Assembly: GCA_002269645.1 (NCBI GenBank)
Contig: NIVC01001331.1
Coordinates: 62,001-126,000, forward strand
Direction of reading: 5' to 3'
DNA length: 64,000 nt
Source of the DNA: Macrostomum lignano
Lineage: Eukaryota
Shown: piece by piece, positions 2,126 through 8,859 of the stretch
Layout: each line of letters starts with the position of its first letter
Position numbering within the stretch: position 1 is the first letter of the stretch
Notes under the pieces: model-generated
Told to the model about the DNA's origin: nothing
The model's input: only the letters and a program-made list of their open reading frames with translations
The model's database searches: none
Position numbers and translations under genes: made by a program

Positions 2126-2834
2126 GGTCTCCCTTTCTAGTCTGGCTTATTTTTTTCCCAATATACAGTTTTGAGTACCCAATCTCTCTGATTCCCTCTC
2201 CCTCTCCAACTCTCCCAAGTCAAATTTGTCCGAACAGAAATTTCTACGAAAAAGGAGATTTGTTAAAATGCAAAGAGAGCCCCCCCGACCTTCATTAGCC
2301 AGGTTGGTCAGGCGTGGCCGGGCAGTGGGGCGATGGTCAATTTGTATTTCTTATTTAAAAAATACTCAACGACTGCAGGTGCGCCGGGTAAGAAACAAAA
2401 AAGAAACTAATGAGGTGTGAAAGCAATATTTTCCTTCCAAAGTCTTGCGCACAGGTGTGCTTTCCCGATCGAGTGGATTAATAATTATTCGACAATAATT
2501 ATTGCCGAATATTCTCGATTGCACCTGTTGGGGAAATCTGTGAAAATTGTGCTTATTTGGCCAACAAAATGCAAAACAATATCCGAATAATATAAGATAT
2601 TTAGTTCAGGTTTGTAGCTGCTTGTGACATGTGATTTCGGCAAAGAGAAAAATATTTTGCAATGAAAAAGCTTCAATTTTAAAAAGTGATTTTGTTTTAA
2701 TTTAAAACTTTGAATTCTGGAAAGGGTTTTTTTAAAGTTCTTGAAAATGATTTTGAACTCCGGAAAATTATTCTGAACTCTGGAAAATATTTTTTTAACT
2801 TTTGGAACCGATTTGAAATTCAAGTAATGATATT

Positions 2835-3030
2835 GAATTCCGGGAAATGATTTGGAATTCCGGGAAATGATTTTGAATTCCGGGAAATGATTTTGAATTC
2901 CGGGAAATGATTTTGAATTCTGGGAAATGATTTTGAATTCCGGGAAATGATTTTGAATTCCGGGAAATGATTTTGAATTCCGGGAAATGATTTTGAATTC
3001 CGGGAAATGATTTTGAATTCTCGGAAATGA
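2835..3030. repeat. 20-bp tandem array (gaattccgggaaatgatttt), ~9 copies, directly upstream of the coding exon
   Basis: 20-bp periodicity seen directly. Confidence 0.93.
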
Positions 3031-3081
3031 CTCCAACTTCAACTCGAAATTTCTCCCCATCCATCGGCGCCGCCCGGCCAG

Positions 3082-3851
3082 GCTCCGCCGTCGCCCCACC
3101 GCCAGCCAGCAAGCGAGCCGCCCTGCCGCCCTCCGAGGCCAAAGCGGCCGTGCTGCGCATGCGCCGCAGCCTGCTACTCGGCGCCATGGAGTCCGGCATG
3201 CCAGCCGCGCGTCGGCGCCGTCGAAAACGCGACCTGGTCGAATTCAGCCCGGAGGAGTACCGGCAGTTGGCCGCCATGCTGGCCAGCCAGCCAGTCGGCG
3301 GCTACGTCGAAGACGCCGAAGGCAACATCCGGCTGGCCGCCGACGATCGCGACGGCGCCGATCCCGAGGCGGCCGCCGAGGAGCGGGCCGAACCGGCCGT
3401 CGACGTCGATGACTACGACAACAATGACGCCGGCGGTCTCTTTGAGGGCTGGGCCGAGGAGCCCGTCAGGGACGACAACTTCCCTGGCGAGGAGAAAGAG
3501 GAGGAGGAGGACGGATCTGGGCGAGAAAACTTCAGCGAAACCGCCGACCTGTCATCGATGCTGCCACCGCCGCCACCGCCGCCACCTCCGCCGCCGCCGC
3601 CGCTGCCGCCGAGCCGGCAGCCGCTGACGATGTTCCTGGTGCGCATGGCGGGCGTGAAGGGCCTGTTCGTGCCGCTGGACCAGGACCGTGCCGAGCAGAT
3701 GGCCGACGAGCTCACCGGAGAGGCGGCCATCGCTGAGGCCGCCGAAGCTCAGGCCGAGGCCGAGCGGCGCTCGCAACTCGAGGCGGCCGGCGTGGCCGAG
3801 CTGAAGCGATTCGCCGAGAAGTTGGCCAGGCGCGTCCCGCCCGGCTACTGA
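3082..3851 (+). CDS. Coding exon of an acidic, dibasic-site-rich (prohormone/granin-like) protein; 5' exon(s) not identified
   Basis: Strongly GC3-biased ORF (3027-3851) containing KR, RMRR, RRRRRKR, KR and RR sites, acidic stretches and a poly-Pro tract. Candidate acceptor ccag at 3078-3081; TGA at 3849-3851; GTGAG donor at 3861. Confidence 0.65.
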
Positions 3852-3874: not shown

Positions 3875-4898
3875 TGATCTCACTCTTGATCTCACTCTTG
3901 ATCTCACTCTTGATCTCACTCATAATCTCACTCATGATCTCACTCTTGATCTCACTCATGATCTCACTCTTGATCTCACTCTTGATCTCACTCTTGATCT
4001 CACTCTTGATCTCACTCTTGATCTCATTCTTGATCTCACTAGTGATCTCACTCTTGATCTCACTCATGATCTCACTCTTGATCTCACTAGTGATCTCACT
4101 CTTGATCTCACTCTTGATCTCACTCTTGATCTCACTCTTGATCTCACTCTTGATCTTACTCTTGATCTCACTCTTGATCTCACTCTTGATCTCACTAGTG
4201 ATCTCACTTATGATCTCACTCTTGATCTCACTCTTGATCTCACTCTTGATCTCACTCTTGATCTCACTCTTGATCTCACTCTTGATCTCACTAGTGATCT
4301 CACTTATGATCTCACTCTTGATCTCACTCTTGATCTCACTCTTGATCTCACTCTTGATCTCACTCTTGATCTCACTCTTGATCTCACTCTTGATCTCACT
4401 CTTGATCTCACTCTTGATCTCACTCTTGATCTCACTCTTGATCTTACTCTTGATCTCACTCTTGATCTCACTCTTGATCTCACTCTTGATCTCACTCTTG
4501 ATCTCACTCTTGATCTCACTCTTGATCTCACTTATGATCTCACTCTTGATCTCACTCTTGATCTCACTCTTGATCTCACTAGTGATCTCACTTATGATCT
4601 CACTCTTGATCTCACTCTTGATCTCACTCTTGATCTCACTCTTGATCTCACTCTTGATCTCACTCTTGATCTCACTCTTGATCTCACTCTTGATCTCACT
4701 CTTGATCTCACTCTTGATCTTACTCTTGATCTCACTCTTGATCTTACTCAGGATCTCACTCTTGATCTCACTCTTGATCTTACTCAGGATCTCACTAGTG
4801 ATCTCACTCTTGATCTCACTCTTGATCTCACTCTTGATCTCACTCTTGATCTCACTCTTGATCTCACTCTTGATCTCACTCTTGATCTCACTAGTGAT
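3875..4898. repeat. 12-bp tandem array (gatctcactctt), ~85 copies, filling intron 3861-5042
   Basis: Periodicity seen directly; the array starts ~14 nt after the donor. Confidence 0.97.
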
Positions 4899-5042
4899 CT
4901 TGGTCATGAACTCACTCATTAACTCGCTTGTGAATTCACTCACTCAATGAATAATTCATAAACTCATTTATTCATAGAGTCGAAAAAGACCTCATTTAGC
5001 GGTCTCAAACACTCATACTGCAGTTTTCTAACTGAATTCCAG

Positions 5043-5275: not shown

Positions 5276-5424
5276 GTAAAACTGCAGTGAAAACTAATAC
5301 GCGGTGACAATAATTTTGAGCAGCATCAGCAAAACTCACACGGCTGTGTTTTTGATTTGTTTCTTTTCCGCTTGAAAATTTCATGGTTAGCATTTGTAGT
5401 CTACTGAGAGTAGAAATAAAGGGT

Positions 5425-5660
5425 TTTCTAAGAAATGAGCTGGAGCTAGGTCGATTTTCTTAGAAATGAGCTGGAGCTAGGTCGATTTTCTTAGAAATGG
5501 GCTGAATCTATGTCGATTTTCTTAGAAATGATCTGGAGCTAGGTCGACTTTCTTAGAAATAAGTTGGAGCTAGGTCGATATTCTTAGAAATGAGCTGGAG
5601 CAAGGTCGACTTTCTTAGAAATGAGCTGGAGATAGGTCGATTTTCTTAGAAATTAGCTGG
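5425..5660. repeat. 31-bp tandem array (ttcttagaaatgagctggagctaggtcgatt), ~7 copies
   Basis: Periodicity seen directly, with diverged copies. Confidence 0.9.
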
Positions 5661-6414
5661 AGGTCGGTAAGGAACGTATATCTGTCATATCTCTAGTGCG
5701 CTTAGTACATGCATGCTCTAAAGAACGAGCATTAGCTGAATATAGAAAATAAATAGCATCAAAATGATTTTTCCTTGCTTTTCTTATCGGCCTCCAGTTA
5801 ATTTCTAAGAAAGTCAAGTGTAGCGTCCTTCTACCAAGGACTACTAAGTAAACTCGGGAGGCGGAACTTCAACTTGGTAGGAATTTTTTTCAAGGCCCGC
5901 CCAGAAAGCATTCTCTATGATAAAAAGTTGGTAAATATTTAGCATAACAGTTATGCGTCCTGAGTTTTTCAGTAGTTCTTGCCTTCTACTTCAGTTGTGC
6001 TTGGTATTTTTGATAGGCCTTCAAAATGTTTCTAAGAAATTGTCCTCTCGTTTATATTCTAGAATAATTACAGATTCGTTTCTTGATTTTCTAAAAAGAA
6101 AGTTGAAACAAAGGCAGTAAAAATAGAATTTATACAGATTGAACAAATCAATCGTATTACCGCTAATTACATAATTGCATCATCACTGAGCCCATTAGCA
6201 TCGCATTGATGTGCAATGTTTGAGCAGAATAATGTGTATTTAGACCGCTATACAATGTACATACAATTTACTGTATACAGTTATGGATTGGCAAGAATAA
6301 TTTACAGGTGCACAAATTAAATCAATTATTTTATATTTACAAAGGAAATTATGATATGTGCAGTTATTGCCACCAGCTTGATGCTGACTGATTGACAGAT
6401 TCTGTTCGATGCAG

Positions 6415-6594
6415 TCACCGAACTGCAGCAATGGCTGGAGCGTCACTCGATCGCAGGTACTTGGCGATGTCAGCCCAGAGCCGGTCGAACGTCTGCGACA
6501 GAGAAGTTGAAGACAACCGCCGGCGCCTCTGACAGGCGGTCTCGTTGTAGAAGTACCAGACCGTCACCTCCTTGCTGAATCGGACAGACTTCAT
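6415..6594 (-). CDS. Candidate 59-aa micropeptide with an N-terminal PP1-docking RVxF motif (MKSVRFSKEVTVWYF...)
   Basis: GC3-rich codons within AT-rich flanks; it is the first ATG downstream of a TATA/Inr pair; KSVRF fits K-x-V-x-F. Confidence 0.55.
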   Translation of the reverse strand: MKSVRFSKEVTVWYFYNETACQRRRRLSSTSLSQTFDRLWADIAKYLRSSDAPAIAAVR

Positions 6595-6819
6595 TAGTTG
6601 TAACAAAATTTGTGTTTCAAATCTTTGAAAAGGCGAGTTTTTTTAAAAAGGACCGTTTCGCGGCTGCTTGTCAGAGGTATTTATAGTCTTATTGCGCTGT
6701 TATTGTTTAGCCCTGCGTGTTGGGGTGGGCGGCTGGGGGTTATACACTAACTAAATAGCTGTAGGCACGAGGCGGCTTCTTCTTGTCAGCTGCAACTTCT
6801 CCGCGCGGCCCCTGAGCTC

Positions 6820-6860
6820 CGCTGACTCGCGCCTCTCGTACCCTGCGTGTTTATAATATA
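6820..6860 (-). promoter_or_regulatory. TATA box (TATAAA, 6855-6850) and TCAG initiator (A at 6823) for the micropeptide gene
   Basis: Canonical ~32-nt TATA-to-Inr spacing on the minus strand. Confidence 0.5.
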
Positions 6861-8859
6861 AGAAGACAGGCAGCAGTGTGAGACACAAATCGTGAATCAG
6901 AATGGTTTAGCAGAATTGGGAAAGGCTTCAATTTAGGCAGGGCCAAGCTGTATATGTCTTTTGTTTTTCATGCACAACACAATTTTAAGGTGGACTAGTG
7001 AGTGACCGAAGGATCTATTTTTGGGCTTAACAATAGCAAGTACTGGTATATAGTATATTCCCTCTATAGTCTAAGTGAAGCCCGCACAACTGCACAATAA
7101 AGAGCTGTTCATAAAGATTCATATATGGAGATCGGGGGTGCACTTCAGTAAACAATTTTCCTATTATTACATTGACACATGAAAAAAACATTATATTGAC
7201 ACAAGTTAGAAAATACCAGCTCATAGTACCTAAAAATGCTTCAAGTTCTGTGAAGGAGAGCCGAGAGGATTTGCGCCAGAAATGCCCTGCACTTCTCATA
7301 TCCGTTTGTAAAGACTCCGGATTTCTTCTAATATTGCTGCAGCTATTTTAATTTTGACAGATCCGCATTTAAGCAACGCAGACAATATATTGTTTCGCGT
7401 AGCATATAATTATTGGGGAAGGGGGGTTGGACACTTCAATTCAAAAAGAAGTCTTGGCAAAACTTCGTCTAGCAGCTGTCTGTTTACTTGAGTGGAGTAG
7501 CCTTTAGCCATCACAGCTGAAGCCGGGGACCGCTAGCGACTTATATTATACTCCTCTGCGCGGCCTTCATCAAGCCCATATTGACGCAGTTGGACAATAG
7601 CTCAGTCTGTTTAATTTGTAACTAAAAAGTTTTTGTCTGGGCAGGGACGTCGTTATGGATTTTATTTGTGAGGGGCACAAAGCCAAGTATTTTACATGCA
7701 TATGACTAAATTCCAACATGTTATTTTGAGAATCGAGAGGTGTTATTAGCGCTGATTTTAGCGCCGCAGGTAGGCACTTATTTTGACGCCCTGAAGCAGA
7801 ATTAATTGGCATGTCGTCGAAGTCCAGCTTTTACTAGGGGGAAGGGGTTTACGACGCCCCTGGTGTGCTGGACAACATGTCATGTACATGTACATCTGGG
7901 TGTAATTCTACATGTACAAGCCATTTGCACTGTCAATGACGTATAGTGCTTAGTGCTTTATTTTAACAAATAATTTTAGATTTTTCAACCTCAAGTATGC
8001 GATGCGATTACATATACATCACCTATGATGTACATGTAGGGGATAAGAATTTTAGCAACGGTCTGCAGCTCTGCAGCACATGCACAAAATCCTGTCAGTT
8101 TTTTCGACTCAATGCATTGCATGCACAGTGTGTTGTGTACATGTAAGTCTGTTCAGTTCGGAGTAGCTATTCGAAATAAATCTAGGCACCTTGTGCCCCT
8201 CCGCGAGCTCTCGACAAAAGGCTCCGTCTTTATTATTTCCTTTTTAGATCCATCGCTATCTTACCAAGGACCACTAGGAACACTTCATCTAGTAGTCCTT
8301 GTATCTTACTCGAGAGTCTCCTCTCAGTGATGCTCACATGAACAGGCTAGCAAACGCCGTATATACAAATAGATATTAACTAGCCATTTAGCCCCCCGCT
8401 GGGGGGCTTTAAAATGACACCAAGTGGTTTTTATTTTGGCTCAACAGTAACCATTAATTTCCATTTCCATAAATCAAAAATTACTTTTTCTCATTTTGAA
8501 GAAAATAAATTGTCATGAATTAAAACTTTCACCAGCAAAAAAAGTTTCCTTCATCAGCCCAAAACCCTTTTTCAATCAGCAAATAGTGCTAATCCTTTCA
8601 AGCACAAACTCTTAGAGCATATCGTCATTGGCCTGGGCATATTCTGGTCCGCAGCAGGAGCTCAATATACCAATCCCTGACGGCCTTTGACCCCTATTTA
8701 TTAGCCTAACTCAAAGAATCAAACCTTTAGTAAATACGCTGGTATTTCCTATCAGCAGAATTCAGCATCACTTGTGTGTACTATTTTATTACCTGAATTA
8801 AATGAGCTACCTGAGCCGTACTACTTGACGATCTGACAATCGCTCAACAACCTAACCCC

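Follow-up and report, generated by a model that had tools for sequence, protein, structure and literature searches.

The window, a stretch of 64,000 nucleotides of Macrostomum lignano contig NIVC01001331.1 (positions 62,001 to 126,000; coordinates below are those of the window unless a contig is named), encodes on its minus strand a protein of 59 amino acids whose first residues contain an RVxF motif and a PhiPhi segment, two elements used by regulators of PP1. The gene has the following features:

6415..6594, minus strand: ORF of 59 aa plus TGA, single exon
6577..6591, minus strand: RVxF motif K2-S3-V4-R5-F6
6550..6567, minus strand: PhiPhi segment V10-T11-V12-W13-x-F15
6505..6528, minus strand: four-Arg run followed by L-S-S-T (R23-T30), a PKA-type site
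6451..6501, minus strand: predicted amphipathic helix, residues 32-48
6124..6414, minus strand: AU-rich 3' UTR of 291 nt with an untemplated poly(A) end and no AATAAA
6678..6685, minus strand: proximal TATA box, likely the main promoter
6821..6858, minus strand: distal TATA box with Inr-like element, at most a minor start

The 59-aa ORF is a real gene, as seen from its codon bias, the RNA-like contigs that cross it without joints and the NCBI entries for two other copies. A single-exon frame of 59 codons, with its deduced sequence and a strong GC3 bias, had been noticed in a preliminary description, and both observations hold. GC3 is 0.73 (43 of 59 codons), between flanks with a GC content of 0.30 (5' UTR) and 0.33 (3' UTR), and of the 18 codons with two-fold degeneracy, 17 have G or C in the third place (binomial p = 1.4e-4). 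For comparison, GC3 is 0.33-0.37 in three neighbouring ORFs of 55-90 aa. The start context lacks a purine at -3.

The genome assembly contains three copies of the gene, on contigs C1331 (the window), C1771 and C132, with synteny over at least 10 kb. M. lignano was described as a hidden polyploid (PMC12869490), which would account for this copy number. NCBI names the C1771 and C132 copies hypothetical proteins of M. lignano. The three proteins differ only by A52T and W40R, both non-synonymous and too few to judge selection. The letter that encodes Arg at residue 40 of the C132 copy (window 6477) is absent from all four aligned sequencing runs, even from those with other C132-type alleles, and Arg40 is either a rare allele or an assembly error. 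The shared synteny of at least 10 kb speaks against a transposon or viral origin, and the jointless contigs together with a poly(A) end 291 nt past the stop speak against the ORF being an exon of a longer protein, such as the automatic 1445-aa model P0128. This public model fuses the ORF with antisense and repeat-derived sequence, a PPP phosphatase and a GPCR, and it joins unrelated proteins in one 90% cluster. Elsewhere in the window, positions 3027-3851 of the plus strand hold an open frame of 274 aa (GC3 0.82, acidic, Pro-rich, no Pfam match) that probably belongs, as an exon, to a gene convergent with the 59-aa gene. Tandem arrays at 456-1061, 1623-2134, 2745-3030, 3875-4900 and 5424-5662, with units of 20, 10, 20, 12 and 31 bp, create long false ORFs and vary in length among the three copies.

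Evidence for transcription comes from contigs of four runs from four studies, taken from 14 runs that contain 32-43% of the words of 6200-6900 and whose type was guessed as RNA, none being recorded as such. All four aligned runs cover the ORF without any splice joint, and none covers 6853-8200, which was used as a silent control. On a contig of run X14 that bears the window copy's own alleles, nine untemplated T precede 6124, and the genomic DNA past this position is not A-rich. The gene is transcribed and polyadenylated, and the transcript likely makes the 59-aa protein. The preliminary description had proposed a distal TATA box and Inr upstream of a 229-nt leader without ATG. TATAAA at 6855 and the Inr-like TCAGC at 6825 are both present, and no ATG occurs within 300 nt upstream of the ORF in any of the three copies. 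As the main leader, the 229-nt version did not hold up: the deepest contigs end at 6647 (X1, depth 31) and 6652 (X2, depth 144), about 30 nt below a proximal TATA box that had been overlooked (TATAAATA at 6685-6678; TATAWA in all three copies), and contigs upstream of 6652, which reach 6797, have a depth of only 5-17. The main leader would then probably measure about 55-60 nt, starting below the proximal TATA box, with a minor start farther upstream; this is only a weak hint, since contigs cannot prove starts. In a table of PMC7336406, to which ids were matched by name across annotation versions, the C132 gene id has no positional specificity and is listed as lower in groups of eight worms than in worms kept alone.

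To model the complex with PP1, the 59-aa protein was combined with residues 7-300 of an insect PP1 as stand-in, which is 95-99% identical to two exons of the PP1 gene of M. lignano itself. Structure prediction had been proposed as a check, and it placed residues 2-17 at the PP1 sites for RVxF and PhiPhi with an ipSAE of 0.90, against 0.00 for the best of three controls; the runs shared at least 58% of contacts and the pLDDT of the 59-aa partner was 51. In the calibration, which was composed without peptides or disordered chains, 51 of 78 solved microbial complexes attained the ipSAE mark, against 2 of 108 mismatches. Among eukaryotic pairs, 39 of 65 solved ones without an older like complex attained it, against 2 of 126 unrelated ones. 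Residues 2-7 and 9-17 form the confident interface, lying on PP1 residues 74, 78, 168-169, 242-243, 261 and 288-299, i.e. the RVxF groove and the PhiPhi site. V4 and F6 make the lowest-error contacts (PP1 242-243, 261 and 289-292), and the PhiPhi segment contacts PP1 residues 74, 78 and the region 293-299. PP1 Asp71 of the Arg pocket is outside the confident contacts, and none of these extends beyond residue 17 of the small protein. It is thus predicted that residues 2-17 dock on the RVxF and PhiPhi sites of PP1. Since complexes of RVxF-PhiPhi strings with PP1 have been solved already, the result expresses likeness to known docking strings, which the predictor may have learned from those structures, and is not proof of binding. 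At least 85% of PP1 regulators contain RVxF and about 20% contain PhiPhi (PMC10743859), and the combined string is common to several unrelated regulator families (PMC10743859, PMC12185105).

A second gene with this string was found in the M. lignano genome:

G000:C1410:256530-256745 (L138:1320-1535), minus strand: ORF of the 71-aa paralog; second copy on G000:C1615 (L140)

A tblastn-type search missed this paralog, and it was recovered with the DNA pattern M-x-x-V-R-F-x-x-x-V-x-V (49 matches, mostly repeats, against 20 for the control; 12 loci were translated). The K-x-V-R-F-x-x-x-V-x-V-type pattern alone is not rare in the genome (19 matches, control 24). Two genomic copies of the paralog were found, fewer than the three of the 59-aa gene. 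Like the 59-aa gene, the paralog has a coding-type GC3 (0.72), and it has a TATA-like box 55 nt upstream and a hypothetical-protein entry at NCBI. The two proteins share 12 of the 15 N-terminal residues, covering RVxF and the hydrophobic pair and including 6 of the 9 positions left free by the pattern; K2-F6 is identical and five of the six PhiPhi residues are kept. DNA likeness is limited to 39 nt, and 5 of 10 shared degenerate codons differ synonymously, one through a switch of Ser codon family. Beyond residue 15 the tails are unrelated (3650 of 5000 shuffles score equally well). The tail of the 59-aa protein is basic (net +6) with the PKA-type site, and that of the 71-aa protein is acidic (net -4), with S-T-P in an acidic spacer and a second RVxF-like motif, K-R-V-F-F, at 43-47. 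A basic run is found in both proteins, as is a C-terminal segment of hydrophobic or amphipathic character. Conserved residues with synonymous changes inside a 15-residue string, next to unrelated tails, are what selection confined to the docking string would be expected to leave. The preliminary description had named a lack of KSVRF conservation in related species as refuting; this condition is answered in part, between two genes of one species.

The family has two members, both from M. lignano, and lineage restriction is the best reading of the searches. The 59-aa sequence recovered nothing beyond M. lignano among 5.8 billion proteins in a single-sequence search, nothing new besides the three copies in a protein search of the genome, and no match in the PDB; no relatives were found in viral or metagenome contigs. 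A search with a four-row alignment, covering proteins of 32-125 aa only, recovered just the two M. lignano genes. The sole further match, among 1.84 billion representatives, was a bacterial-type repeat protein that we judged to be chance, and a Pfam match to FabD_helical_ins (E 0.016) was below the cut-off. The tails of both proteins match no Pfam family at cut-off. Several further DNA patterns yielded only repeats, short frames and exons of unrelated genes among the translated loci, most pattern rows being judged from the matching letters alone, with no locus fetched. Literature searches on Macrostomum with GADD34, the gene id Mlig034040 or RVxF PP1 microproteins found nothing. The gene ids are absent from the supplements of PMC12801592, PMC12896417 and PMC5730564 as far as these were available, and those of the micro-genes from PMC8662610 and the orthogroup rows listed in PMC7336406, which is not evidence of absence. 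By the literature searches above, the two-gene microprotein family is undescribed.

The 59-aa protein had been likened specifically to the PP1-docking module of GADD34/PPP1R15 and viral DP71L/ICP34.5. Two features of this group, RVxF and PhiPhi (PP1 Tyr78), are present in both sequence and model. As in PPP1R15A/GADD34, PPP1R15B/CReP and DP71L/ICP34.5 (PF10488), RVxF is followed by a hydrophobic pair at Phe+6/+7, here V12/W13 with an aromatic second residue, at the places of V564/H565 in GADD34 (numbering of PMC10743859). Size and layout are like those of DP71L (71 aa), and residues 9-15 resemble the CReP segment after its RVxF. The expected Arg is also found at the described spacing, as R26 lies 20 residues after Phe6, like R578 after F558 in GADD34 (PMC10743859 numbering); R578/R658 occupies the PP1 Asp71 pocket. 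R26 is only a putative equivalent of this Arg: the paralog has Ser at this position, and R26 is outside the confident contacts.

Past the docking string the likeness ends. In contrast to PPP1R15 and DP71L, the 59-aa protein has neither R-x-G-x-W nor the A-x-D-R-x-R-F-x-x-R-I helix and no Pfam or profile match, and unlike cellular PPP1R15 it has no uORF, PEST or membrane domain. As controls, a motif search of viral contigs yielded 43 loci for natural DP71L-like ORFs, 30 of them with the motif in frame, and 11 non-redundant ORFs were used. PF10488 matched 11 of 11 controls and not the 59-aa protein. A profile of these controls scored it at 1.6 bits over residues 2-15 only, against 54.5-104.8 bits for members left out in turn. 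When residues 16-59 were shuffled, 1368 of 2000 sequences scored equally well (121 of 2000 for full shuffles), and the weak resemblance of DRLW..I to the eIF2-alpha motif does not stand out from chance. The residues with which GADD34 recruits eIF2-alpha and G-actin, namely W582, the helix contacts R587, D588, R591 and R594 for eIF2-alpha and F592 and R595 for actin (PMC8500838, PMC10743859), have no counterparts in either the GADD34 or the CReP register; in the former, the positions of W582, R587, D588, R591, R594 and R595 are T, T, F, L, D and I. The invariant Trp that follows the Arg at a distance of four residues (W582/W662) is replaced by T30 in the GADD34 register or R25 in that of CReP, and W582A and R591A strongly weaken the holophosphatase (PMC8500838). 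No uORF as in cellular PPP1R15 (PMC10743859) was found within the ATG-free 300 nt of the three copies. Apart from this comparison, short DP71L-like ORFs in which both the RVxF and the eIF2-alpha-binding motif are complete are numerous in environmental viral contigs (L017-L059, several metagenomic).

In the ESM Atlas the clusters nearest to the 59-aa protein include small viral proteins, two clusters having PF10488 on 16-29% of members (0.90-0.92). PF10488-bearing viral clusters score 0.85-0.86 for the paralog, and the values of both proteins are weak by the tool's own yardstick; the viral clusters can be explained by the shared first 15 residues. Canonical PPP1R15 was not found in the M. lignano genome with a PF10488 search (run without a positive control) or a DP71L-like protein query, and two motif patterns gave 12 and 13 matches, among which those translating to the motif had no in-frame RVxF at the right spacing; this is no proof of absence. 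For C. elegans, too, no PPP1R15 is known (PMC10743859). Membership of the 59-aa protein in PPP1R15/DP71L is not supported by these comparisons: only residues 2-15 are alike, in a string common to many PP1 regulators, and the special tie proposed earlier finds no support.

The tail also invites comparison with Inhibitor-1 and DARPP-32, in which the phospho-Thr is followed by Pro. In the 59-aa protein, R23-R26 lie at Phe6+17 to +20 and S28/S29 at +22/+23, which fits the Inhibitor-1 layout of R8KIQF12, Arg30, 31 and 33 at +18 to +21 and PKA-phosphorylated Thr35 at 23 after Phe (PMC5758809). Shuffling produced the four-Arg form at this spacing 72 times in 200000 and a plain R-[RK]-x-[ST] 6050 times in 200000, both counts being post hoc. 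Inhibitor-1/PPP1R1A and DARPP-32/PPP1R1B (PF05395) share with the 59-aa protein the N-terminal RVxF, the Arg cluster and a phosphoacceptor at about +23. They differ from it in that it has Ser-Ser-Thr with a Ser acceptor instead of Thr, contains a PhiPhi segment and is basic, not acidic; it has no PF05395 match at E 10, and its layout is absent from the paralog. PF05395 was also not found in the M. lignano genome in a search without a positive control. The R23-T30 run could be a localisation signal. The helix at residues 32-48 was predicted by single-sequence AlphaFold2 (mean pLDDT 64), with a hydrophobic moment of 0.73 for residues 34-48. With the RVxF-PhiPhi-R-W interactors (Phactr1-4, neurabin/spinophilin, PNUTS; PMC12185105) the protein shares the first two docking elements and their predicted path. 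In contrast to these, it has only a putative R element, no W element (no Trp or like residue is found four after any of R23-R26) and no PDZ, RPEL or substrate domain, the whole protein being 59 aa long.

All three copies of the 59-aa gene have an intronless phosphatase gene 17-23 kb downstream:

G000:C1331:49747-51156, minus strand: 470-aa divergent PPP phosphatase, upstream of the window start (L221, L229)

It has intact catalytic motifs and a 60-residue insertion, is 33-40% identical to PP1 and belongs to an orthogroup of 70 Macrostomum species; it is annotated as testis/germline and up in groups in PMC7336406. PPP-family genes are greatly expanded in the genome (more than 80 PPP-like places); many of them occupy long open frames, and on C1474, C4086, C1283, C458 and C1814 some form tandem or inverted clusters. 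The flanks searched for the two paralog copies, about 87 and 98 kb, contained no PPP gene. Around the closest paralog of the phosphatase, 574 kb with 3844 frames contained no docking micro-ORF of this kind. Since the link did not repeat around the paralogs and the phosphatase is testis/germline, the neighbourhood is treated as coincidence.

We give about an even chance to the reading that the 59-aa protein is a lineage-restricted RVxF-PhiPhi microprotein that would occupy PP1 and compete with other regulators, and not an eIF2-alpha adaptor. Residues 2-17 would bind the RVxF groove and PhiPhi site, and the bound protein would be a small subunit that inhibits or competes and so damps PP1 holoenzymes. 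Other RVxF regulators would be displaced, because the groove is shared and no substrate-binding domain is recognisable. The unrelated tails of the two paralogs may set where or when each acts. The weakest step is that phosphorylated S28/S29 would reach the PP1 active site as an Inhibitor-1-like switch. A regulator bound to PP1 commonly inhibits its action on non-cognate substrates, and the fragments of PPP1R15 that bind PP1 do not by themselves form a functional holoenzyme (PMC6282683). The earlier idea of a minimal PP1 regulator, possibly a decoy that does not recruit eIF2-alpha, is thus retained in its docking string and its missing eIF2-alpha module (PF10488, shuffles, register) and given up as a decoy aimed at the eIF2-alpha phosphatase; as a decoy, a general PP1 competitor is the likeliest mode.

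As the main rival, the same docking would serve a minimal targeting subunit, in which the Arg run and amphipathic helix carry PP1 to the nucleus, nucleolus, a membrane or a substrate and promote dephosphorylation. The basic run and the hydrophobic or amphipathic C-terminal stretch occur in both paralogs, 44 and 56 residues past the docking string are kept with coding-type codon bias, and a basic patch with an amphipathic helix could recruit a substrate or location; with tails that are not detectably related, differ in the sign of their net charge and have no Pfam match at cut-off, this function seems rather unlikely. Somewhat less probable again is a shared N-terminus for a role outside PP1, for example a targeting or degradation signal, or an untranslated RNA. 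The string at the extreme N-terminus and the start without a purine at -3 would fit this, whereas the codon bias, the synonymous changes under a conserved string and the canonical predicted contacts of the RVxF-PhiPhi residues argue against it.

Two readings build on known phosphatase systems. A degenerate PPP1R15/DP71L core might still direct PP1 to phospho-eIF2-alpha and stand in for the GADD34 that the worm seems to lack (five queries, the family search without a positive control). It draws on the DP71L-like size and layout, the CReP-like residues 9-15, the Arg at Phe+20, a Phe at +30 that opens a helix (+28 to +34 in the family) and the viral, PF10488-bearing Atlas clusters. It is very unlikely against a PF10488 test passed by every control and failed by the 59-aa protein, the wide gap in profile scores, the six replaced contact positions, the missing uORF and PP1 D71 outside the confident contacts. 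At least as improbable is a partnership with the expanded, divergent, intronless PPP phosphatases, such as the 470-aa neighbour, rather than with canonical PP1. The neighbour lies on the same strand in all three copies, and PPP-like places are numerous; the fetched flanks of the paralog and the surroundings of the phosphatase's closest paralog do not repeat the arrangement, its identity to PP1 is low, and the neighbour is testis/germline and up in groups whereas the micro-gene is non-specific and down (PMC7336406).

The preferred reading, competition for PP1 by a docking microprotein, touches on how this phosphatase is tuned. PP1 specificity is set by regulators, which are mostly long proteins, and to our knowledge cellular PP1 regulators cut to little more than a docking string have rarely been described. 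Short ORFs escape homology searches, as did the paralog in the tblastn-type search. The 59 residues might also hold an independently arisen Inhibitor-1/DARPP-32-like switch, in which an RVxF-PhiPhi anchor presents the PKA site as pseudosubstrate and links cAMP to PP1, the paralog using the same anchor with an acidic tail for another kinase input. We consider this doubtful; if true, the two genes would make up a family of modular PP1 microregulators below the size of all vertebrate counterparts, and the family would allow a test of whether Inhibitor-1 logic arose more than once. One anchor combined with exchanged tails, in a worm that serves as a regeneration model and is open to RNAi and transgenesis, would make it possible to test directly for PP1 tuning by competing microproteins in animals.
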